Source: Planctomycetota bacterium
Lineage (GTDB): Bacteria > Planctomycetota > B15-G4 > SIAN01
Assembly (NCBI GenBank): GCA_031409275.1
Contig: JANNXA010000014.1
Span: 256,001-320,000 of the forward strand
Direction of reading: 5' to 3'
Length of the DNA: 64,000 nucleotides
Within the stretch, counting starts at the first letter, position 1. Every line of letters starts with the position of its first letter. The position numbers were made by a program, and so were the translations under genes. Positions 31,338 to 44,259 of the stretch are shown here, in pieces. The notes beneath the pieces are model-generated. The model was not told the origin of the DNA and ran no database searches. It was given only the letters and a program-made list of their open reading frames with translations.

Positions 31338-34300
31338 TCAACGGGCGTCCACCACATCCTCGCCATCCCCACCCTCGCGCAATCGCTGCAGCCGCTGATA
31401 GAGGTTGCGCTCCGAAATCTGCAGTTCCTTGGCCGCGCGCAGCCGATTGCCGCCGCACCGCGCCAGCACCTCCTGCAAGTACGTCCGCTCCTGCGCTTCC
31501 AGGTACTCCTTGAGCGGCAGCGCGTGCAACGGTTCGCCGACGACGGTGTCGGGCAGTTCGCTGCGCAACGCGTCGACACCGATCTCTTCTGCATCTCGGT
31601 TCAACACCAGCAGCCGCTGCACCGCGTGCTCGAGTTCGCGCACGTTGCCGGGCCAGTCGTGCAGCACGAGCCGTCGCCATGCCAGCGGGGTGAAGCGCGG
31701 CGGCGCGCGCTTCAGTCTTGCCGACTCGCGCGCCACGAAATGGTCGAGCAACAACGGCACGTCGTCGCGCCGCTCGCGAAGGGCTGGGAGGTGGACCTGC
31801 AGCACCATCAGCCGGTACATCAGGTCCTCACGGAACCGACCGGCAGCGACCTCTTTCTTCACGTCCTTGTTCGACGCGGCGACGATGCGCACATCGACCT
31901 TGCGCACCGGCCCGCCGCCGAGCCGTTGCACCTCGCCGCTCTGCACCGCACGCAGCAGCTTCGCCTGCAACTCGGGCGACGCCTCGCACACCTCGTCGAG
32001 GAAGAGCGTGCCGCCGTCGGCGCGTTCGAACAGGCCGGCCTGCTCCTCGTTGGCGCCGGTGTACGCGCCTCGTTGATGGCCGAACAGCTCGTTCTCGATC
32101 AACGTCGGCTGCGTCGTCGCGCAGTTGAGCGGCTCGAACGGCTTCTCGGCGCGGCGGCTGCGGCGATGGAGAGCTCGGGCGACGAGTTCCTTGCCGGTGC
32201 CGCTCTCGCCGGAAACCAGCACCGGCAGGTCCGCATCGGCGAACAGCTCGATTCGCCGCTTCACCTCCTCCATCTCCTGGCTCTGCGCGATGATCCCCTC
32301 GAACTGCGGCACGCGGCCGGCCGATCGGCGCGCCTGATCGAGCGACGCCTGCGCCGCGCGCAGCTCCCCTTGCTGCTCGAGCAGCACCTTCTGGAGTTCG
32401 CGGTTCAGCCGCGCGATCTCCGCCTGGTTCGTCTCGAGTTCCGCTTCGCGGGCGCGATTCGCTGCCAGCAGTTGCGTCTTCTCCAGCGCGATCGCGGCGA
32501 AGTCGGCGAGGTTCTCGACGTAACGCAGATCGGAGGGCCGAAAGGCGTCGATGCGCGTGGGCTCATCGAGGTAGAGCGAACCGATCGTCTCGTCGCGATC
32601 TCGCATCGGCACGCACAACACCGACAGGAGCTTGAGCTCCGAGATCGACGCTGCATCGCGCCACTGCTCGTCGGCGCTGACGTCGGAGAGGAGCACTGCC
32701 GAGCCATCGCGCGCCACCTTGCGAGCGACCGAAGAGCTGAACGCGAGCTCGGGACGTTCGATGTCGGCGGCCTCGAGGTTGCGGGCGACTCTCACTTCGA
32801 CCTGCCCCCCGCGCCCGAGCAGCAGGAATCCGCGCGCCGCGCGCGTCGCTTCGACCGCATGGTCGAGCAGCAGGCGCAGCAAGCTCTCGCCATCCACGGC
32901 CGCCGAGATCTCTTTCGCGACCTGCATCAGCCGTTCGAGCGCTGCGAGCCGTTCCGCCGACTCGCCGTCGTGAGCGGCCGTCAGGGGCACGGTGAGTCGC
33001 CGCCGCAGCGTTCGCGCGCGGCGCAGCAACGGCCGGTGGCCCGATCGGCGCGCGAACTCCTCCGACTCCTCGAGCAGGCGGCGATCCTGGAGAGCCGTGC
33101 CGAGGACGAGCGCCGGCTCCGCCTTCTGCGCCAGGAAGCCGGGTGCCTGCGCCGCGTCGTAGGCCGCGCGCGCCTGCTCCAACCTCGGCGCCGCGACCGC
33201 GCGACCGTGGCGCAGCGCCGCAACCGCCGCCATCACCGCGGCCCGCGCTCGCAGCGCCACGTAGTCGCTGCCCTCGAGATCGGCGAGCTGCTCTTCCGCC
33301 GTTGCGGCCAGTTCCTCCTGCCGACCGAGCCGCCGCAGCGCCGAAAGGCGCGCGTCTCGCAGGAAGAGCCGGCGGCGGCGCGAGCCGATCGACTGCGGCA
33401 AGCCCTCCAGCGCGCTTTCGACCGCGCGGCGGCTGCCCGCGAAGGTCGCCCACTGCAGGCGGTACTCGGCGACCAACGCCCCAAGGTCGTCGTGGCCGGT
33501 CGCCACCGGATCGGCGGCGACCTGCGCCATCAGCAAGCGCGCGGCGCGTCCGCGTCCCTCGCGCATGAGCACTTCGGTGCGCACCAGTTCGGCGCGCCAC
33601 GCACCTTGAGCGTCGTCGATCGTTCGCGCAATCGCGACGCAGGCATCAAGCGCCGCATGGGCGGCGGCGAAATCACCCTCGTTGAGCGCGACGTGCGCCT
33701 GCATCAACTCGATCCGACGCAGCACGCTCGGCCGGTTCATCGCGTGCGCGATCTCGCGCGAGCGCTGCATCTCCTGCTTGCACTCGACGAAGCGGCCGAG
33801 ATCGAACAGCGTGTTGGCCAGGTTGAGCGCGTGGATCGCCTCCTGCTGCCGATCGCCGAACGCGACGGCCGCGGCGAGCGCGCGGCGGAACGTGGTGACC
33901 GCCGCCTCCGGGTGGCCGCAATCCTCCTGGAAGCGGGCGAAGTTGCCTTCGATCGTGGCGACCTGGAGCGGCAACCCCGTCGCCTGCGCCGCGGCGAGCG
34001 CGACACGGAACCCCGTCGCCGCCTCCTCGAAGCGGCCCATCCGCCACAGCGTGATCGCGTGGATCGAGCGCAGTCGGTGGTCGCCACCGTCGCCCGCCAC
34101 GCGTGACTGCGCGAGCGCGAGGCGGCAGACCGCTTCCGCATCGGCGTCGCGCGACAGCTGGTGCAGCAGATAGGCACGCAGCGCCGCCGATCCTGGAGCC
34201 CGTTCGCCGAGTCCCGCGGGGGCACGATCGAGCCGGTCGAGCGCATCGCCCGGACGGCCGCAGCGATCGAGCGCGCGAGCATGCTCGATCAGCGCGCGGC

Positions 34301-36431
34301 CGCGCGTCGCATCGTCGTCGAGGAGCTCCGGCAACGGCGCCAGCAACTGCTCGGCGCTCGCGTGCGAACCGCGCCGCAACTCGACGATCCCGCGCACCAA
34401 CCGCGCGGCGGCACGCGCGGGCGCGGCGACGGTGGGCTGATCGAGCTCGCGCGCCGCCGCGTCGCCTTCGGTGAGCCGCTGCGCATCGATCATCGCCAGC
34501 GCGGACGCCGCGAACCGGCGCGCCGACGTCGCATCGCCAGGGTCGGCGCGAAACGCGTGACGAGCGCGGCGCGCGTCGCGATCGGCGAGCTCCGGATGAT
34601 GATCGAGCAGCTTCGCCGCGAGGCGATGCAGCTCCTGGGCGCGAGCTTCTGGCAACTCCGCGCGGACGCACGCCGCGACGCCGCTTTCGCTGCAGCGCCA
34701 CGCGGCGCCCACGCGCTCGACGAGCCCCGCGTCGGCCAGCGCACGCAGTTCGCCGGCACCCGCGTCCGGCGCGAGCGCCTCGAGTTCGAGCGCGGTCGCA
34801 TCATGATCGAGCAGCGCCAGCGCCTCGAGCGCGGCGCGGGACGCCCCGCGAGTGGACTGCACCCGACGACGCACCAGTTCGAGCAGATCGCCGCCCGCTT
34901 CCGCGAGGTCGACTCGCGTCGGATCGAAATGGAGGCCTCCGAAATCGGCAACCAACGCGCCCGCCTCGGTGGCGTAGCACAGCAGTTCCACGACGCGAGC
35001 GACGTCGACGTTCGCGGCGGCTCCTTCACCCGCACCGAGGTATCGGCGAAGCGGCTCCGGCAATGGCGCGCCGATCCAGCCGGGGAAGATCCGCTTCAGC
35101 TCGTCCGCGGCGAGCACGCGTGGCGAGAGCGTCCGCAGCTCGAAGGCCGCGGAACAAGCGTCCGCCAGCAGCGGATCGGCGCGCGCGGCACCGGCTCCCG
35201 AAGCGACGATCTCGATTCGAGCGCGAAGCAGGAACCGCAGCAGCGCTTCGTCATCGGCATGGCGGCGCGGCAATTCCTCGACGAAGAGGACGAGGCGCCG
35301 TGGCATCTCGCCGCGCTGCAATCGTGCCAGCAGGAGGTCGAGGCTGCCCGTTTCCGGCTCGCCAGCGAGGGTGCGGAGCTGCTCGTTCAGGGAGTCGCGC
35401 ATCGTCGCGGCTCCCGCTTCGGGGGCGCAGCAGACGACCAGCGGCCACGCCTCGCCAAGCAGCGCCGTCGTCCGCAGCTCTCGAAGCAGCGCGTCGCGGC
35501 CGCCGCGCGTCGGCGCTGTCACCCACGTGATCGTGCCGCCGGGACGCGATTCGCCGGCGGCAAGCTGCTCGTGCCATGGCGGATCGAGCGGCGGCACCGA
35601 GCGGATGCGACCGAGCAAGGTCGCCGGCGTCATCTGCGGCAGCGGCTCCGCGGCGGCGCGCGACAGGTCGGCCAGCACAACCGCTGCGTGTTCGTAGCGC
35701 TCGGCGGGCGATTTCGCGAGCAGGCGCGCGACGATGTCACGCAGCGGTGGCGGCGCGGCGAAGTCCGCGTTGAAACGGATCGGCTGCTCGAGGTGGGCCC
35801 GCGCCCATTCGGTCGGCGTCGCCGCTTCGAACGGATGGCGGCCGCTCCAGAGCTCGAAAAGGAGGACTCCAAGCGCGTAGAGGTCGCTCGAGTGGCTCGG
35901 CGGCGCGCCGCGAAAGAGCTCCGGAGCGAGGTAGGGCAGCGACCCCGCCGCAACGGCGCCTCCAGCTGCGACCGCCAGTCCGAAGTCGATCAGGATCACG
36001 CGTGGCTCGGCGCCGCCCTCGACCAGCAGATGGGCGGGCTTCAGGTCGCGATGCACGATTCCGCGCTCGTCGAGCAGGGCGAGCGTGCGCAACACTTCCG
36101 CGAGCGCGCGCTGTTGGATGGCGAGGTCGGCGGTGGCGAGCGCCTCGATCCATGGCCCACCGCTGCCCGGTTCGCTGGTGAAGAGCCAATCGCCGCTGGC
36201 AGGGTCGAGTCCGAGCTCATCGACGCGCGGAATGCCCGGGCACCGCAGCGCCTGGAGCCGGCGAAACTCCTCCTGGACGAGGGTGGCGCGCCTGGCAGGG
36301 GTCCGTTTCAACGCCAGCGGCGGACCGCCGCGGACGAGATCCTGCACCAGCACGACCTGCGCCGTCGCGCCGCGGCCAAGTCGCGCGAGGGGTCGGTAAC
36401 GCCCGCTGATCGGGTCGGGCAGATCGATCAT
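31338..36431 (-). CDS. sigma-54 enhancer-binding protein fused to Ser/Thr kinase, TPR-like and GAF domains
   Basis: N-term LGRGA..V, ALK, HRDLKP, DFGL, APE; TPR-like helices; GAF; AAA+ GESGTGKE, GAYTGA, LFLDEV, WPGNVREL; C-terminal Fis HTH; start near 36431. Confidence 0.9.
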   Translation of the reverse strand: MIDLPDPISGRYRPLARLGRGATAQVVLVQDLVRGGPPLALKRTPARRATLVQEEFRRLQALRCPGIPRVDELGLDPASGDWLFTSEPGSGGPWIEALATADLAIQQRALAEVLRTLALLDERGIVHRDLKPAHLLVEGGAEPRVILIDFGLAVAAGGAVAAGSLPYLAPELFRGAPPSHSSDLYALGVLLFELWSGRHPFEAATPTEWARAHLEQPIRFNADFAAPPPLRDIVARLLAKSPAERYEHAAVVLADLSRAAAEPLPQMTPATLLGRIRSVPPLDPPWHEQLAAGESRPGGTITWVTAPTRGGRDALLRELRTTALLGEAWPLVVCCAPEAGAATMRDSLNEQLRTLAGEPETGSLDLLLARLQRGEMPRRLVLFVEELPRRHADDEALLRFLLRARIEIVASGAGAARADPLLADACSAAFELRTLSPRVLAADELKRIFPGWIGAPLPEPLRRYLGAGEGAAANVDVARVVELLCYATEAGALVADFGGLHFDPTRVDLAEAGGDLLELVRRRVQSTRGASRAALEALALLDHDATALELEALAPDAGAGELRALADAGLVERVGAAWRCSESGVAACVRAELPEARAQELHRLAAKLLDHHPELADRDARRARHAFRADPGDATSARRFAASALAMIDAQRLTEGDAAARELDQPTVAAPARAAARLVRGIVELRRGSHASAEQLLAPLPELLDDDATRGRALIEHARALDRCGRPGDALDRLDRAPAGLGERAPGSAALRAYLLHQLSRDADAEAVCRLALAQSRVAGDGGDHRLRSIHAITLWRMGRFEEAATGFRVALAAAQATGLPLQVATIEGNFARFQEDCGHPEAAVTTFRRALAAAVAFGDRQQEAIHALNLANTLFDLGRFVECKQEMQRSREIAHAMNRPSVLRRIELMQAHVALNEGDFAAAHAALDACVAIARTIDDAQGAWRAELVRTEVLMREGRGRAARLLMAQVAADPVATGHDDLGALVAEYRLQWATFAGSRRAVESALEGLPQSIGSRRRRLFLRDARLSALRRLGRQEELAATAEEQLADLEGSDYVALRARAAVMAAVAALRHGRAVAAPRLEQARAAYDAAQAPGFLAQKAEPALVLGTALQDRRLLEESEEFARRSGHRPLLRRARTLRRRLTVPLTAAHDGESAERLAALERLMQVAKEISAAVDGESLLRLLLDHAVEATRAARGFLLLGRGGQVEVRVARNLEAADIERPELAFSSSVARKVARDGSAVLLSDVSADEQWRDAASISELKLLSVLCVPMRDRDETIGSLYLDEPTRIDAFRPSDLRYVENLADFAAIALEKTQLLAANRAREAELETNQAEIARLNRELQKVLLEQQGELRAAQASLDQARRSAGRVPQFEGIIAQSQEMEEVKRRIELFADADLPVLVSGESGTGKELVARALHRRSRRAEKPFEPLNCATTQPTLIENELFGHQRGAYTGANEEQAGLFERADGGTLFLDEVCEASPELQAKLLRAVQSGEVQRLGGGPVRKVDVRIVAASNKDVKKEVAAGRFREDLMYRLMVLQVHLPALRERRDDVPLLLDHFVARESARLKRAPPRFTPLAWRRLVLHDWPGNVRELEHAVQRLLVLNRDAEEIGVDALRSELPDTVVGEPLHALPLKEYLEAQERTYLQEVLARCGGNRLRAAKELQISERNLYQRLQRLREGGDGEDVVDAR

Positions 36432-36578: not shown

Positions 36579-38147
36579 ATGAATCGCGTCACCCCGCTGC
36601 GCCGCTTCCTGCTCGCCGCTTGCGCCACCGCGGCTCTCGCGCCTGCGCTGCTCGCCGACGTCGTGGTGCTGAAGAGCGGCGAGAAGCTCGAAGGGAAGAT
36701 CCTCTCCGAGACGGCGACCTCGATTCGCATCGAGACGCCGTTTGGCACCACCGATGTCGAGCGCACGCGCATCGCGAAGATCGAGAAGGGACAGACGCCC
36801 AAGGACAAGTACACCGAGCGCAAGGCGACGCTGAAGGCGGGCGACGTGAGCGGTCGTTGGGAGCTCGCCCTCTTCTGCAGGGAGAACAAGCTCACCAAGG
36901 AGTGGAAGAAGCTCCTCGACGAGATCCTCGCCATCGACCCGAGCCACGATCAAGCCAACCGCGAAGTCGGCCGCATCCAGTACGACAACAAGTGGTTCAC
37001 CAAGGAGCAGCTCGAGAAGTACAAGGACGAGGAGCGCAAGAAGATGGAGGCCGCCGGCATGGTCCTCCATGACGGCCGCTGGATGACCGAAGCGGAAGCG
37101 ATGACGGCGAAGGGCTTCGTCCAGGTCGACGGCAAGTGGATCAGCAAGGAAGAGGTCGAGCGGCTGGTGGCGATCCGCGACTGGCAGGCGACCTACGGCA
37201 CCGAACTCCACATCGTCACGAGCGAGCACTTCGAGCTGCGCACGCCGCTGCCGCCCGAAGACCTGCAGGAGGTCCTCGACCTCTGCGAATCGGCCCACGC
37301 CGAGTTCGTGGCCATGGCCAAGCCGGACGAGAAAGAGCTGCGGTTCATGGATCCGGCGCAGAACGTCTTGTCGCGCATCTACATCTATGTGCACGACTCG
37401 CCCGGCAGCGTCACGCAGTTCATCGAGTCGGGCTACATCAAGCGCCACTACGTCCCGCTGACGGTGCTCGAGGACCAGAAGGACGCCGACAACTTCTCGG
37501 TCTACTTCCCGATCCCGCTGATCGTGCTGAGCGAAGGACGTCACCTGAAGTCGAGCGACTCGCGCGACTTGAACCAGGCGGGCATGGCGCTCGCGCACCT
37601 CGGACAGATCCTGATCCGCCGATTGAAGCGCGGCGGCGGCCTATGCGGCTGGGCCGAGGCCGGGATGGGGCATTGGGCCGAAGGCGAATGGAACGGTTAC
37701 GCGACGCTGTCGATCATCGAGTACCCGCACTACGAGCCCTACGTCGACAAGTGGACGCCGGACGGTTGGGAGAACTTCCCGCGCTGGAAGGAGAACCTCA
37801 GCAACCCCGCCGAGGTATCCAAGCTGCCTTCGCTCAGCGACATGATGGAAAAGCCCGTTGAAGAGCTCACCATCGCGGAAGAGGCCAAGGCGTGGAGCAT
37901 GGTCCTGTTCCTGCTCGAGACGCGGGCCGAGAAGTTCTTCGACTTCGTGCGCGCGTCGAAGACCAAGTTCCACGACGAGATGGTCACCAACTCGCGGGCG
38001 TTCAGCGACGCCTTCGCGCCCGAGACGATCGGGCAGATCGACGCCGCCTGGGCCACCTGGGTGAAGACGATGAGCAAGGGCGAGCCGAAGATGAAAGCAC
38101 CATCGGCGCCTCTCGGCGGCAAGCCCGAAGGCGGCGGCCGCCCCTGA
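36579..38147 (+). CDS. secreted hypothetical protein
   Basis: AAGGAG RBS, signal peptide ending ALLA-DVVVLKSG..LEGKI, repeated 'DGKW/DGRW' motifs, C-terminal region with gluzincin-like 'W.E.G...W.E'. Confidence 0.8.
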   Translation: MNRVTPLRRFLLAACATAALAPALLADVVVLKSGEKLEGKILSETATSIRIETPFGTTDVERTRIAKIEKGQTPKDKYTERKATLKAGDVSGRWELALFCRENKLTKEWKKLLDEILAIDPSHDQANREVGRIQYDNKWFTKEQLEKYKDEERKKMEAAGMVLHDGRWMTEAEAMTAKGFVQVDGKWISKEEVERLVAIRDWQATYGTELHIVTSEHFELRTPLPPEDLQEVLDLCESAHAEFVAMAKPDEKELRFMDPAQNVLSRIYIYVHDSPGSVTQFIESGYIKRHYVPLTVLEDQKDADNFSVYFPIPLIVLSEGRHLKSSDSRDLNQAGMALAHLGQILIRRLKRGGGLCGWAEAGMGHWAEGEWNGYATLSIIEYPHYEPYVDKWTPDGWENFPRWKENLSNPAEVSKLPSLSDMMEKPVEELTIAEEAKAWSMVLFLLETRAEKFFDFVRASKTKFHDEMVTNSRAFSDAFAPETIGQIDAAWATWVKTMSKGEPKMKAPSAPLGGKPEGGGRP

Positions 38148-38189
38148 GGTCGCCACCGCCCGCCCCGATCACCGAACGCGGAGGCAGCG

Positions 38190-41100
38190 TTACTTCGTGC
38201 CTCCGGTCGCGCGCGCCGCAGCCGCCGCCGCCGTGAGCTGCGGATCGAGCGCCACCGCGCGCGCGAGGTGCTGCTCCGCCGTCGGCAGATCGCGCTGCAA
38301 CGCGAAGAGCAGCTCGCCGACCCGCAGATGGGCGAGTGGCGAATCGGCGAAGAGCTTCAGCGCCGCCTCCCCCTGCCGCAACGCCCCTTCGAGATCGCCG
38401 GCTTCGCGCGCGTGCCGTGACAGCTTGAGTCGCAGCTCGTGCGCGATGGCGATCTGATCTCGGTTCGAGGTCAGCAACGCTTCGCCGCAGCGATCGTCGA
38501 GGTACTCGGCGGCGATCTTCGGACCGGCGACGATCAGCAGCTGGCGCGCGAAGTCGAGCGCCGTGTAGGGCGCGGGGCTGCTGTAGCGACGACCACCGAG
38601 CGGCAGCGACAGATCGAGCAGCGACTCGACCGGCGCCGTGACGAAGCGCAGGTCGGCGACCAGCTGCTGCGGATCGACCGCCCCCTTGTAGAACGCCACC
38701 AGCCGGCCGCTGCCATCGAGCAGGAAACTGGCGGGCGTCGGCAGCGGCGGGTGGCGCGGATAGAGGGCCGAGTAGAAGCCACGCACCCGCTCGACACCGC
38801 CGGCGTCGAGGAACCCGACCGGCCACTGGAAGCCCTTCTCCTTGGCGAGCGCGAGTGCGGCGGCCTTGTCAGCAGGGTTGTCGTCGGCCTCATCGAGACT
38901 CAACGCCAGCACGCGAACGGAATCGAGGCTCGAACGCGCCTTCACCAGCGCATCGAGTTCTTCGCTGCATCGGCAGCACCAGCTGGTCCAGACCACGATG
39001 AGCAGCGGCTTCGCGGTCGCGAACTCGAGCGTGCGCGGCTTGCCCGACGCGTCTTCGTACGGCAGGCGCGGGAAGGGCAAGCGCATCGAAAGGATGCTGC
39101 GCGACTGGGCGGAGACCTTCGTGTTCGGAAGCGCCTTGGCTGCCAGTGGAGCGCCCGCCGGCGGCGCGGCGATCGCAGTCGCGCGCCCACTTCCTTGCTT
39201 CAGCCGGAAGCGGCCGTCGGCCGCGACTCCTTCGAACCGTTCCGTCGCGCCACCAGGCCAGCGCACGCTGACACGATCGATGGCTGCGGACGCACCGAGC
39301 CCGAAGTGGACCGTCTTGCTGCCCTGCGAGAGGAAGCCCTCGCCCGCGCGCAGCGTGCGCAACATCGGCCGTGCATCTCCGACGACGTAGAGCTCGACGC
39401 GCGCACCGATCGCGTCGATGTTGGTGCCTGGTGCCGTGGCCGCGAGATCGAACTCGACGAAGTGGTTCGTCCGCTGCGCGTCGTTGCGCATGAAGCGGAC
39501 CTGTGGGCCGTTGCGGTTGACGATCCAGAGATCGAGGTCACCGTCGCCGTCCCAATCGACCTTGCCGCAAGCGCGAGCATCGTCCGGGAAGTCGAGGCCG
39601 CTGACGGCCGAGGCATCGGCGAACCGCTCGCCCTGCGTGTTCAGGAAGAAGACGTTGCGCTCCTTCCCCGACCAGCCCGCGCCTTCGCTCAGCATCTGCT
39701 CGAGATGGTCGACCGCCGCGTGGTAGGCGGTGATGTCCATGTCCGCGGAGAGCTTGTCCGGCGAGTGCGACAGAACCTGTCGCCACCAGAAGCTTCAGAG
39801 GTCCTCCGGTTCGGTGTTGGTCAGGTAGCCGTTGCAGACGAGCACGTCCTCGAAGCCGTCGTTGTTGGCGTCGAGGAAGAACGATCCCCAAGCCCAGCGA
39901 CCCAGCGTCGTTCCGGTCGCCTCCGAAACATCGGTGAAGGTGCCGTCGCCGCGATTGCGGTACAGCGAGTTGCCGCGCGCGAGGAACTGGAAGCGGCTCT
40001 TCCGGTCCTGCTCGATCTCCGGCTTGAAGTTCGGTTGATAGGTGATGCGATTGCCGGCGGAGGACCACATGTTCGAGACGTAGAGGTCCATGAAACCGTC
40101 ACGGTCGTAGTCGCCCCACGTCACTCCCATGCCGAACGAACGGTCGACGCAGCCCGCCTCCTCGGCGACTTCCTTGAAGTGGCCGCCATCGTTGCGGTAG
40201 AGCACGTTCGCGCCGAAGTCATTGGCGACGTAGAGGTCCTGATCGCCGTCGTTGTCGTAGTCCTCGAATGACGCTGCCCAGCTCCAGCGGTGGTTCTTCT
40301 CATCGAGGCCGAACTCGGCCGTCGCCTCGGTGAACGCCATCGCCCCACCGGGCTTGGTGTCGTTCCTGAAGAGGAGGTTGCGTCCGCCGTTGTTGGCGTC
40401 GTGCAGCGGGATCGGATGGGCGAGCTGCCCGGGATCGGCGTTCTCGTCGTGGAAGACGCAGGCATAGAGGTCGACGTCGCCATCCTGATCGACATCTGCC
40501 GCCGCGAGCGAGATCGACGGGCGCTTGAGCGGCAGCAGCAGCTGACGCGTGAAATGGCCCTTGCCGTCGTTGGCCATCACCATCAGGTCGAAGCCGGTGC
40601 CGGCGACGAGGTCCTGGTCGCCGTCGCGGTCGAGGTCGAGGAGCAACGCCGCATGGGTCGGCTCGATGAAGTCGACCCCCGACTGCTGCGACACATCCTT
40701 CACCGTGCCATCGGGTTGGTGGAGGAACATGCGGTTGGGGAGGCCGCCCGCCTGGCAGATGAAGAGATCGTCGAGGCCGTCACCATCGACGTCGCCGACG
40801 GTGACCCCTTGGTGACCGCGAGTGTCGTAGCCGAGACGAGCGTCCATCCGGCTCAGCCACTCTTCACTGCCCGTGACGAGCTGACGCTCGAACGACGCGT
40901 TCTGACCGATCGCCGCCAGCGTGCAATCGGCGAAGAGCGTCCCGGTCGGGCCACGGCCCTCGACCTCTTCGAACGCGTCGAGAGTGATCCCGGCGAGAAG
41001 CCCCGGGTCCTCGCCGGCTGGCAGCATCCAGCGGCAGCTCCAATACGAGATCTGTTGCAGCGTGCCGCGCGGCAGCGTGGCGAACGTCTCGACGCGAACC

Positions 41101-41621
41101 CACGTGCGCAGCGGCGTTTCGTCAGCGTGGACGTGGATGGTCTTGATGGCGACGCGCCGCGCGGTCGCGCCCGCCATCGGCTCGAAGAGTTCGGCGAGGG
41201 CGGCGGCGAACCCCTCGGCGCCTTGACGCGTCGCCGCGGCTCCCGCTTCGAGTGCGCCAGCAGCGGGTCGGCGGACGATGAAGCTCGACTGGTCGTAGAC
41301 CGTCGCGCATGACGCCGGACGCAGACGACCGAGGGTGAATCCGGGCGCGATGAAGTGCTCGAGTTCATGCACATCGGGCGCATTCGTGGACGAGACGTAT
41401 GCCGCCCACTTCTTCAGCGTCTTGTCGACGCGACGCGCGTACTGCTCGGACATCCAGCCATCGCTTCGAGGGTCATCGTCGATGCGCGCCTTGCCCAACG
41501 TGCCCGTCGGCCCCTCGCCCGGCGTTTTCTGAGGCTCTGCTGGAACCTGAGCCGACGACGCGGCGGCAAAGGCAGCGAGCGACCACGAGATCGCCATGGA
41601 CGGCGCAAGTCGGAACCGCAT
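38190..41621 (-). CDS. secreted FG-GAP/VCBS repeat + ASPIC/UnbV + thioredoxin-like + TPR protein with one in-frame TGA (39797-39795), candidate selenoprotein
   Basis: Signal peptide, many DxDxDGxxD repeats on both sides of the TGA, 'DAIGARV', 'GEGFLSQ..VHFGLG', 'VRWPGG', WCCRC; the two ORFs are in frame and joined by 18 sense codons. Confidence 0.75.
39765..39797 (-). promoter_or_regulatory. UGA plus bacterial SECIS-like hairpin
   Basis: UGA-AGCUUCUGGUG (11 nt)-GCGACAG-GUU-CUGUCGC; perfect 7-bp stem with G-U at the start of the loop. Confidence 0.65.
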
Positions 41622-41749
41622 CGTGGAGCCCTCCTGACCGGACGGAGCGACTGATCCGCGCGCCTCAATATCGCGCGTCGACCGCGTTGGGGAGGGGGCA
41701 GCGACGAGGATCGCTGACCTTCGGCGCGCGCGCCTCGACTCGCCTTCGC

Positions 41750-42829
41750 TCAGAGCGCGACGAGCGAGCCTAGCAGCGCTCCGAACCGATCCGCGGCGAT
41801 GCGCGACTCGATGGTCACCTGCGTCCCGCGATGCAGCAACGACGCCGAACTGATCGAGCCGAAGCGCGACACGAAGGCGACGTCGAAGTAGGAGTTCGAC
41901 GCGTATCCCGACGGCATCGTGTCGAGCGGCGAGTGCTCGATGAAGTCGATGTGCTCGACGCCGTCGCTGTAGACGAAGCGCCACAGCAGCAAGGGCTGCA
42001 AGGCACGCGCCTGGTTGGCCTCCGTCTGGATCGAGACCTCCTGGATCTCGATGAGTTCGAATCCGGCGGGGAGCCCCCCATCCTTCGGGAGCACCAGCGT
42101 CAGCCCGAGCGCGGCCGCATGAAGGCGCGCCGTGTCGAGCGTCGGCAGGTTCTCGCTCGTCACGATCGGCGACTCGTTCGGGACGAGTCCGCTCGGCGGG
42201 CCCCACCGCAGGCTGGTGACCACCATGTGGCTGGTCATCCGCGAGCCGGACGGATCCTTCACGTACTCCTGGTACTCGAGGGGAAAGCCCTCGCGGCCGA
42301 CGCGAGTGCTGGCCGTCAGGACATAGAAGGGGCGATCGTCAACGACGGGCTCGATGAGGAAGGTGAGGGAGGGTTCGCCTCGCGCGGTGATCGGCTCACG
42401 ACCGAGTTCGACGATGGTGATCCAGTAGTTCGCCGCCATCCGATCGAGATCGTCCGGCGTCGCATCGCGCTGGAACAAGGCGCGCATGCCACCACCGGTC
42501 GCGAGTTGCGCCGCGAGGCGATCGAACGCTGCAAGCTCGTGCGGATCAGTGATCGCGGCGCGCGCCAGACCGTTGCGTTCGAGCAATTCGATCTGGAAAT
42601 GGCCCGCGCCATCGGACTTCACGCGCTCGAGCCACTCCACCTGCAGACCGGCGTCGTCGGCCGTGAATCGTCGCTCGACGGTGAACGCGTGCGACGAATA
42701 GTCGAAGACCACCTTGCGGCAGGTCTGCTCGAGGAGGGTCTCATCACAACCAGTCGCCGAAACGAGCAACGCCAGGCCGCACACGGCCGCGAGCAGCGAC
42801 TTCCAAGCGCGACAGGCGCCCCGCATCAC
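41750..42829 (-). CDS. MucB/RseB-like periplasmic lipoprotein
   Basis: Lipobox-like VSATGC; C-terminal 'LPAGFEL...FVYSDG...FIE'; third gene of an ECF/anti-sigma locus. Confidence 0.65.
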   Translation of the reverse strand: MMRGACRAWKSLLAAVCGLALLVSATGCDETLLEQTCRKVVFDYSSHAFTVERRFTADDAGLQVEWLERVKSDGAGHFQIELLERNGLARAAITDPHELAAFDRLAAQLATGGGMRALFQRDATPDDLDRMAANYWITIVELGREPITARGEPSLTFLIEPVVDDRPFYVLTASTRVGREGFPLEYQEYVKDPSGSRMTSHMVVTSLRWGPPSGLVPNESPIVTSENLPTLDTARLHAAALGLTLVLPKDGGLPAGFELIEIQEVSIQTEANQARALQPLLLWRFVYSDGVEHIDFIEHSPLDTMPSGYASNSYFDVAFVSRFGSISSASLLHRGTQVTIESRIAADRFGALLGSLVAL

Positions 42830-43458
42830 GGCCCGCCCCGCAGCGGAATCGACGCCCGACCCGGGAGGATCGGCGTCGATAGCGACGGGTCACTTCCACC
42901 ATGAGGGGCAGAAGCGACACGCACGATGCGCACCGCCAACGACGGCCGATCGGAGAGCGCCGCCGTCTCAGCAGCGAAGCCGCGGCGCGCCGGCGACGAC
43001 TGCAGCAGCGGCCAGAGCGACAGGCCTACGAGTGCGGCAGCGGCGACCGCTGCCGCTCGACGCAGGCGCAAATGCAAACGCACCACCGATGCGATCGGCA
43101 GCGCGCCTGGAACGACGCGATCGAAGGTCAGGCTTGCCGGCGCCGCCAGCACCGGCAGCAAACGAAGCTGTTCGCGCGCCCGTTCCCCGTCACGCTCCAG
43201 CTTCGAATCGAAGCGAGCTTCGTCGACCTGGGCCATGATCGCAGCGAAGTCGAGCGCACCGCCCGCGCGGTTTTCTGGCGATCGGCGCGGGAGCTTCGAG
43301 AGGCTTTCGGCGACTCGACTCCGCGAGGCGAGGAGCGCGGCGCAGTCGGGGCAAGCGGCCACATGCCGGAGCAGTTCCTGCTCAGACTCAGCGGCCCAGC
43401 TCGGAAGCAGCACTTCCGAATACCGCGCACAGCCAGTGGTGTTCTTGACCCCGTCCAT
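42826..43458 (-). CDS. zinc-binding anti-sigma factor (zf-HC2 type) with one TM
   Basis: HVAACPDC (HxxxCxxC), TM AAAVAAAALVGLSLW; downstream of the ECF sigma gene; start set at ATG 43458. Confidence 0.75.
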   Translation of the reverse strand: MDGVKNTTGCARYSEVLLPSWAAESEQELLRHVAACPDCAALLASRSRVAESLSKLPRRSPENRAGGALDFAAIMAQVDEARFDSKLERDGERAREQLRLLPVLAAPASLTFDRVVPGALPIASVVRLHLRLRRAAAVAAAALVGLSLWPLLQSSPARRGFAAETAALSDRPSLAVRIVRVASAPHGGSDPSLSTPILPGRASIPLRGGP

Positions 43459-43464
43459 CGCGAT

Positions 43465-43494
43465 TAAGACTGTTTTCCAGTGCCCCAGGGTTCC
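43465..43494 (-). promoter_or_regulatory. sigma-E-type promoter upstream of the anti-sigma gene
   Basis: GGAACCC-N17-GTCTTA on the minus strand. Confidence 0.6.
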
Positions 43495-43603
43495 GCAATT
43501 CTCTGAGCCGCCACCGAAGCGCTCAACGGGTCGAGCGGAACCTATCTCCCGACGCAGCGACCGCCGACGCCGCCCGTTCGCTCTTCGTTCCGTCGCCGCG
43601 GGC

Positions 43604-44209
43604 TCATGCGAGACCGCCGCCAGGGGTCCGGAACGCTCCACTCTCGAGGAGCTCCTGCAGTTGCTGATGCGCACGATTGAGGCGCGACTTGACCGTGCCG
43701 AGCGAGATGCCGAGCACGGCGGCGATCTCTTCGTACGCCATGTCCTCCATGTACCGCAGCACGATCGCCGCGCGCAACGGCTCGCTCAATCGACGCAAGG
43801 CTCGCTCGACCTGCTGGGTGCGCTCCTCTCCTTCGGCCACCAAATCGGAGGGATCGGGCAACGGGTCGGCGATCCGAACCAGCAAGCTCTCGCCGGCATC
43901 GCCACTCGTCGTCGGCAACAGCGTCGTGTTCGACTTGCGGCGATGATCGACGCACAGGTTGAAGACCACGCGGTAGAGCCAGGTGTAGAAACGCGACGCG
44001 AATTGGAACTCGCCGAGCTTGCGAAAGACCGTCACGAACGCTTCCTGGCTGACATCCTCGGCGTCCGCCGGATTGCCGAGCAGTCGCGACGCCAGGTTGA
44101 AAACACGATCGCGGTAGAGGTCGAACAGCGTTCGGAATGCCGTATCACGAGCCGCTCCCGACTCGCGTTGACAACGGCGGATCAGTTCAAAATCTGGATC
44201 TTCGCTCAT
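43604..44209 (-). CDS. ECF RNA polymerase sigma factor (RpoE/SigW-like)
   Basis: DAEDVSQEAF, FYTWLYRV..N.C.D..R, YEEIA..LGISLGTVKSRLNRA. Confidence 0.93.
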   Translation of the reverse strand: MSEDPDFELIRRCQRESGAARDTAFRTLFDLYRDRVFNLASRLLGNPADAEDVSQEAFVTVFRKLGEFQFASRFYTWLYRVVFNLCVDHRRKSNTTLLPTTSGDAGESLLVRIADPLPDPSDLVAEGEERTQQVERALRRLSEPLRAAIVLRYMEDMAYEEIAAVLGISLGTVKSRLNRAHQQLQELLESGAFRTPGGGLA

Positions 44210-44229
44210 GCTCTCGTTGCAGTCGGCGA

Positions 44230-44259
44230 TTGGACGGCTCATTCGCCGCGCGATGTTCC
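44230..44259 (-). promoter_or_regulatory. sigma-E-type autoregulatory promoter
   Basis: GGAACAT-N17-GTCCAA on the minus strand, 20 nt upstream of the ECF ATG. Confidence 0.6.

Follow-up and report, generated by a model that had tools for sequence, protein, structure and literature searches.

We analyzed a window of 64,000 nucleotides (nt) from the Planctomycetota bacterium assembly GCA_031409275.1 (contig JANNXA010000014.1, positions 256,001 to 320,000 of the forward strand); coordinates given below are those of this window. The gene studied here lies on the minus strand, where a frame running from 41621 to 38190 comprises 1143 codons plus the final stop and is interrupted by a single internal stop, the TGA codon 609 (39797–39795; peptide context EPEDL*SFWWRQV). 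The initial annotation, made from the sequence alone, had joined two same-frame open reading frames across this UGA and proposed that the 1143–amino acid (aa) product is a secreted selenoprotein. Retranslation reproduced the joined frame and supplied its strand, which had not been given. The whole gene (38190–41621) would encode 1143 aa if codon 609 is read as selenocysteine (Sec); the protein collection contains proteins of 608 and 516 aa instead. Judging from comparative sequence analysis, the TGA is very likely decoded as Sec, because it is conserved together with a covarying hairpin in genomes equipped for Sec insertion.

The predicted product has a modular organization, with all segments encoded on the minus strand. 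A probable signal peptide (aa 1–24; 41550–41621), recognized by eye and from hydropathy and resembling the N termini of close relatives, is followed by an N-terminal domain without a Pfam or NCBIfam match (approximately aa 45–225; 40947–41489). A seven-bladed FG-GAP β-propeller (approximately aa 229–713; 39483–40937), defined by a Pfam FG-GAP_3 match (1e-40) and by a structural model, spans the TGA. It is followed by an ASPIC/UnbV domain (aa 737–804; 39210–39413; Pfam PF07593, E = 1.8e-19) and a TlpA/ResA-like thioredoxin-fold domain (aa 847–995; 38637–39083) with C882-x-x-C885 (38978–38967), E888, and P963. The WCxxC motif named in the initial annotation is present as W881-C-C-R-C885, a CxxC with an extra Cys. 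Near the C terminus, a TPR-like segment that had escaped that annotation (aa 1065–1128; 38238–38429) matches Pfam TPR_16 below the cut-off (E = 9e-5). The thioredoxin-like domain matches Protein Data Bank entries 1jfu, 4txo, and 4nmu both by sequence and by fold, and scores 35.5 bits (E = 8.6e-9) against the NCBIfam TlpA model, under the cut-off of 230. NCBIfam (June 2026) yielded eight weak matches, none to a selenoprotein model and all below cut-off.

An AlphaFold2 model of residues 225–1000, built from 98 sequences with Cys in place of Sec, had a mean predicted local distance difference test score (pLDDT) of 94.2 and a predicted template modeling (pTM) score of 0.94, and seven blades could be counted from its strand list. 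In blade 6, the TGA falls after strands A and B and before strands C and D; the 60-residue insertion that separates B from C contains a helix, which begins at residue 609 (39795–39797), the predicted Sec609. The claim that the stop cuts a single propeller with FG-GAP repeats on both sides is thus borne out by the joined model. The top fold match was murine CRTAC1 (9etn_A; E = 1e-27, TM-score 0.71 by target, 16% identity), followed by TlpA and ResA. As modeled, the joined product is one CRTAC1-like propeller protein, which is probably exported. A product started at the downstream ATG would have no signal peptide, as had been noted: its best 12-residue hydropathy is 0.21, compared to 1.62 at the N terminus of the full frame. 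Other B–C insertions of the propeller also contain conserved residues (N411-G412 and S520-A522-G523-R525).

Downstream of the TGA lies a selenocysteine insertion sequence (SECIS)–like hairpin with a 7–base pair (bp) stem and a GUU loop (39767–39783, minus strand). It occupies positions +12 to +28 after the TGA, i.e., it follows an 11-nt spacer, at the place and with the 17-nt length originally reported. The minimal E. coli fdhF SECIS is likewise 17 nt long and located 11 nt past the UGA. The folding energy of the 17-mer is −9.2 kcal/mol. The 48 nt from the TGA onward fold more stably than every one of 200 dinucleotide shuffles (z = −3.9), and the hairpin region (−10.6) is more stable than synonymous recodings of the same peptide (mean −4.15, n = 1000, p ~0.009). 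The CGA and GTT codons that build the hairpin, described earlier as atypical, can be called rare: of the 82 Arg codons in the gene 7 are CGA, and of the 64 Val codons 5 are GTT. Of the 98,811 TGA triplets in the genome, 40 are followed by this pairing pattern, among them those of both TGA-bearing family paralogues. An Rfam search of window positions 37000–43000 returned one chance match below threshold, a promoter scan found 0 sites, and terminators were no better than chance.

To place the TGA in a wider context, we collected homologues from genome samples. In the phylum sample, 93 of 401 genomes matched the family, with 202 matches in all; among the 150 matches listed of these 202, 135 contain one TGA, 15 have no stop, and none contains TAA or TAG. 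In the Acidobacteriota-phylum sample, 55 of 251 genomes matched and a TGA was present in 50 of 65 matches, a count that leaves out two unpublished genomes (G807 and G704) on which no claim rests. In a sample labeled Verrucomicrobiota, the phylum of genome G401, the only match among 251 genomes was G401 itself, with six TGA copies; therefore, no claim of wide spread in that phylum is made. A scan of 2 of the 64 parts of a contig collection yielded mostly generic FG-GAP proteins. Loci fetched for part of the phylum and Acidobacteriota matches were classified by motif: in 81 the aligned column is a TGA, and in 30 it is a sense codon. Left out of this site count were 24 alignments that failed the motif pattern (12 of these loci are TGA by another method), three sense matches judged spurious (the second hits in L136, L144, and L166), four duplicate loci, and the G807 and G704 loci. 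Codon +1 is Ser in 79 of the 81 loci, encoded by AGC, AGT, or TCG, and W, R, and V are conserved at positions +4, +5, and +7 after the TGA. Database proteins are broken at the same place: among the 120 best short matches, 21 end exactly before the site and 22 begin shortly after it. One close relative, 86% over the part that matched and named “VCBS repeat-containing protein [Planctomycetes bacterium],” likewise terminates at the TGA site. In one genus, three to five TGA paralogues stand in tandem (G229:C253, G305:C36, G290:C204, and G197:C19).

The initial annotation had treated a TGA unique to this assembly as a refutation of its proposal; the codon is found at the same column in 81 loci from many genomes. 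That the TGA arose in a single genome, by nonsense mutation or as an assembly error, has a negligible probability, and this candidate was ruled out by the conservation of the TGA at one column across many genomes. In its favor, a paralogue on source-genome contig C7, which terminates without a thioredoxin domain, has the Arg codon CGC at the site; against it, the codon and its hairpin recur at this column in a second source-genome paralogue, on contig C34, and the TGA is covered with identical sequence by a contig of X3, another sample from the same study. Contigs from other samples either do not cover the site (X4) or stop 2 nt from it (X5).

Covariation of the hairpin was analyzed in 72 distinct TGA loci. 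All six core pairs are present in 65 of them, compared to 3.2 expected from synonymous recoding with each gene’s own codon usage, while in sense-codon loci they are present in 3 of 30 (1.3 expected). The third base of the Arg codon covaries with the first base of the codon four positions further along (CG 23, GU 21, AU 15, GC 3, and UA 3), and where Arg is replaced by Cys or Ser, the synonymous base of the partner shifts too (UA 3 and AU 2). Two-sided, compensatory changes amount to 62 cells, a level reached in 0 of 500 shuffles, with slid registers giving at most 6. Since the shuffle test is inflated by kinship among loci, the sense-codon comparison is the better control. The loop codon is GTC in 41 TGA loci, GTG in 23, GTT in 7, and TGG in 1; GTT is therefore not required. 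The bacterial SECIS (bSECIS) consensus comprises a loop of 3 to 9 nt, a stem of 4 to 16 bp, a G in loop positions 1 to 2, a spacing of 16 to 37 nt, and a minimum free energy ≤ −7.5 (PMC13188914, Fig. 2 legend). The hairpin of the studied gene, with its 3-nt loop, 7-bp stem, 18-nt spacing, and energy of −9.2 kcal/mol, lies within these ranges, and the energy cut is passed by 69 of 72 TGA loci versus 10 of 30 sense loci. The compensatory changes that the initial annotation had suggested looking for in TGA homologues are thus present: the hairpin is under selection, and only behind TGA.

The source genome contains the complete Sec machinery, whose presence had been listed as a check: selA, selB, and selD exceed curated cut-offs, and tRNA-Sec (selC) was identified by ARAGORN. 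In the SelD gene of this genome, too, an in-frame TGA precedes a hairpin, and the apex of that hairpin is again G-GUU-C. In the phylum sample, selA was detected in 88 of 93 family-positive genomes versus 202 of 308 others. Four of the five selA-negative family-positive genomes (67 to 84% complete) have the TGA and a selB over cut-off; in the fifth (91% complete), both selA and selB are below cut-off and there is no TGA. TGA-bearing Acidobacteriota genomes have selB (36) or selA (4) in 40 of 40 cases, and sense-only genomes in 9 of 13. Among the genomes checked, no TGA copy was found in a genome lacking both selA and selB. Together with the conserved TGA and the covarying hairpin, the complete machinery supports the original proposal of Sec insertion at this UGA.

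These data bear on two accounts in which no Sec is made. It is very improbable that the TGA is a true stop, with two chains assembling one propeller and the hairpin governing restart or mRNA stability. TGA is the commonest stop in the genome, long frames are called on both sides of it, and codon +8 is GTG, a potential start, in 56 of 81 loci. However, codon +8 is CTG in the studied gene and a non-start in about a quarter of loci, and no conserved restart ATG was found, with 28 of 81 loci having no ATG at all within 50 codons. Moreover, residues +1 to +7 are conserved as protein, termination would split one blade and leave a second product without a signal-like N terminus, and the TGA and hairpin are limited to genomes with Sec genes. 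The second account, selenium-free decoding of UGA as Trp or Cys by leaky or hairpin-stimulated read-through, would fit the rarity of Cys homologues and the absence of the usual Sec/Cys signature, and we consider it extremely improbable: none of the 120 proteins or 30 sense loci has Trp at the site, the hairpin agrees with the bSECIS consensus, and the TGA is linked to selA/selB.

To see what replaces the predicted Sec, we examined the site in the 120 best full-length homologues, which are sense-codon genes only, by construction, because TGA genes are split in that collection. The residues are S 50, A 21, Q 12, L 10, G 7, D 6, N 6, E 4, C 3, and H 1. Cys, which had been expected, is thus rare at this position, and most sense homologues have one of S, A, Q, L, G, D, N, and E instead.

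The state of the site is coupled to that of the thioredoxin-like domain. Of the 74 TGA members with this domain in the fetched DNA, 70 have an intact CxxC; sense members have one in 2 of 25 loci and 5 of 114 proteins (7 of 139; P0021 failed the motif pattern and was left out). Because one Acidobacteriota clade dominates the sense set, we built a tree of 136 sequences from propeller and ASPIC columns only, with the site excluded and the root placed at the midpoint. Sense codons are nested within TGA lineages, with nine Sec/sense changes and seven changes of CxxC status; seven of the nine sense groups show a degenerate CxxC or an unaligned domain. W878, E888, and S651 also track the TGA. Ser651 (39669–39671, minus strand) is conserved together with it, being present in 99% of 81 TGA members, 54% of all 149 sense members, and 11% of the 18 sense members that were chosen from outside the large Acidobacteriota clade. 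One Glu (GAG) copy, L114 (G362:C104), retains the full hairpin and CxxC and is a direct neighbor of a TGA paralogue on its contig; it looks like a recent Sec loss.

The suggestion in the initial annotation that the thioredoxin-like domain recycles the Sec therefore holds as a correlation, through the 70 of 74 versus 7 of 139 contrast and the joint losses on the tree, but not as an obligatory arrangement, since 9 of 79 complete TGA members lack CxxC. We consider it likely, from sequence and model together, that the gene encodes a Sec-decoded, probably exported 1143-residue propeller with a redox nucleophile that would be re-reduced by the fused CxxC domain. By analogy with established bacterial Sec decoding, SelB and Sec-tRNA would bind the hairpin at +12 to +28 and insert Sec. 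In the model, Sec609 would start the helix of the blade 6 B–C insertion; B–C loops form the ligand face of the usual FG-GAP topology, opposite the DxDxDG calcium loops, which we take to apply here. The Sec could then attack an oxidized sulfur or disulfide of a substrate sitting on this face, and the CxxC domain, fed by DsbD, would resolve the Sec intermediate. The genome encodes a DsbD membrane domain, apparently in frame with one TGA-xx-Cys site. Lineages that lost Sec have mostly lost CxxC as well, and their proteins would serve in non-redox binding or as scaffolds.

For the chemistry itself, we lean toward such a relay, in which the CxxC domain recycles a Sec nucleophile, over a ligand role. 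An alternative is that Sec is inserted and serves on the face of the propeller as a metal or cofactor ligand or as a sensing residue, while CxxC acts elsewhere or just keeps Sec reduced. Among the replacements at the site are E, D, H, N, Q, S, and C, many of them ligand-type, and a partner thiol is missing from the protein in some Sec members; A, L, G, and R are also found there, and CxxC, W878, and E888 were lost alongside Sec in several separate lineages, which makes a ligand role rather unlikely. The broadest version of the redox relay, for which we see about even chances, is a large and ancient selenoenzyme family in which Sec is ancestral and Cys hardly ever substitutes for it. Its members would be exported CRTAC1-like propellers with the selenium active site on the ligand face and a thioredoxin recycler of their own, with up to eight or more copies per genome and Sec-less descendants that are redox-dead binders.

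Several observations weigh against Sec decoding or its redox interpretation. The lack of TAA and TAG at the site is supportive but not decisive alone, because TGA accounts for 84% of ordinary stops in the source genome (2013 of 2408). Seven of the 72 TGA loci do not have the complete six core pairs in the tested register. The base rate of selA is high (290 of 401 genomes in the phylum sample), and related genomes are not independent. Cys is seen at the Sec column in just 3 of the 120 proteins and in none of the 30 sense loci. This departs from the usual Sec/Cys pattern, and CxxC is missing from two of the three Cys members. On the tree, which has a midpoint root and several deep supports below 0.6, two sense lineages retain CxxC. 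Of the nine complete TGA members without CxxC, four have a degenerate motif and the other five stop after the ASPIC domain, and 5 of the 79 lack both CxxC and any Cys in the ~55 residues that follow the site. Three of the five members ending after the ASPIC domain have a Cys five residues past the site. In L130, L135, and L152, which end in this way, Cys is found at both +5 and +13, a possible replacement partner for the missing CxxC domain.

Directly upstream of the gene, on the same strand (41750–44242), are genes for an extracytoplasmic function (ECF) sigma factor, a probable anti-sigma factor, labeled so from its position, and a MucB/RseB-like lipoprotein (atlas score 0.95, family present on 25% of cluster members). 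This order is kept in one same-genus genome only, and the studied gene may be part of an envelope-stress operon in the source lineage. Across 20 fetched loci and the window, no neighbor family recurs in more than three loci, and therefore the gene context does not name a substrate. Downstream, the minus strand encodes a large Ser/Thr kinase–TPR–GAF–sigma54 activator fusion (31338–36430).

Elsewhere in the source genome, a crude scan revealed TGA codons in thioredoxin-like UxxC or AhpD-like CxxU contexts on contigs C7 (112758 and 86341), C47 (5887), C9 (150784), C16 (170423), C50 (48182), C51 (406320 and 106506), and C34 (79169), one being in an apparent DsbD C-terminal domain. The genome thus seems to be rich in selenoproteins. 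Three more TGA codons in coding-like frames lack the UxxC pattern, C43:63697 (+), C23:25248 (−), and C6:2306 (−); two are near a Cys and one is in a heavy-metal-binding-like context, and they are possible further selenoproteins.

If Sec decoding is correct, a widespread and often multicopy family is added to the bacterial selenoproteome, and a systematic annotation error, genes cut in two by gene callers, is corrected. One residue together with one CxxC also provides a testable handle on what bacterial CRTAC1/ASPIC-UnbV propellers do. On the broadest reading given above, the CRTAC1/ASPIC-UnbV fold would gain a catalytic role, and a class of selenoproteins that searches based on Sec/Cys pairs tend to overlook would come to light.

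The initial annotation did not recall the family among described selenoproteins, and this holds for the parts of the catalogues covered here. The 119-family selenoprotein table of PMC13188914 has no FG-GAP, ASPIC, or CRTAC1 entry, and the accompanying review text, as far as covered, contains none of the terms FG-GAP, ASPIC, CRTAC, propeller, or VCBS. Family terms are likewise absent from the covered portions of the deep-Sep paper and four of its supplements (PMC12013277), of PMC9312934 and PMC13745706, and of the text and one supplement of BSepDB, which has 111 families (PMC13326102). No selenoprotein model in NCBIfam (June 2026) matches the family. Our literature search found no paper on it; Haft and Tolstoy 2025 or Deng et al. 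2026 (unvalidated candidates) could mention it.

Like bacterial selenoproteins such as formate dehydrogenase and SelD, the studied gene has an in-frame UGA, a 7-bp stem with a 3-nt, G-first loop at 18 nt downstream and an energy below −7.5 kcal/mol, and selABCD in the genome. Unlike them, it would place Sec in a β-propeller insertion, outside any CxxU/UxxC motif, and its Cys homologues are rare, while according to PMC13188914, Cys homologues are usually far more abundant than Sec forms and serve as a discovery criterion, although not a strict one. With murine CRTAC1 (9etn_A) and other CRTAC1/ASPIC-UnbV proteins, it shares an FG-GAP propeller followed by an ASPIC/UnbV domain; it adds the TGA-bearing helical insertion, the N-terminal domain, the thioredoxin-fold domain, and the TPR-like tail. 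FG-GAP/ASPIC-type paralogues occur on ~18 contigs of the source genome, three of them belonging to the insertion-bearing subfamily and the others having no helical insertion. The thioredoxin fold, the W-CxxC-xx-E motif, and the conserved proline loop resemble those of TlpA/ResA oxidoreductases (1jfu, 4txo, and 1st9), but the domain is fused to a propeller and scores under the NCBIfam cut-offs for stand-alone TlpA, DsbE, or ResA. In contrast to the listed UxxC TlpA/redoxin selenoproteins, the predicted Sec lies outside the thioredoxin-like domain. The decoding mechanism is known; new here are the fold in which the Sec would sit, the scarcity of Cys forms, and the joint loss of Sec and CxxC.

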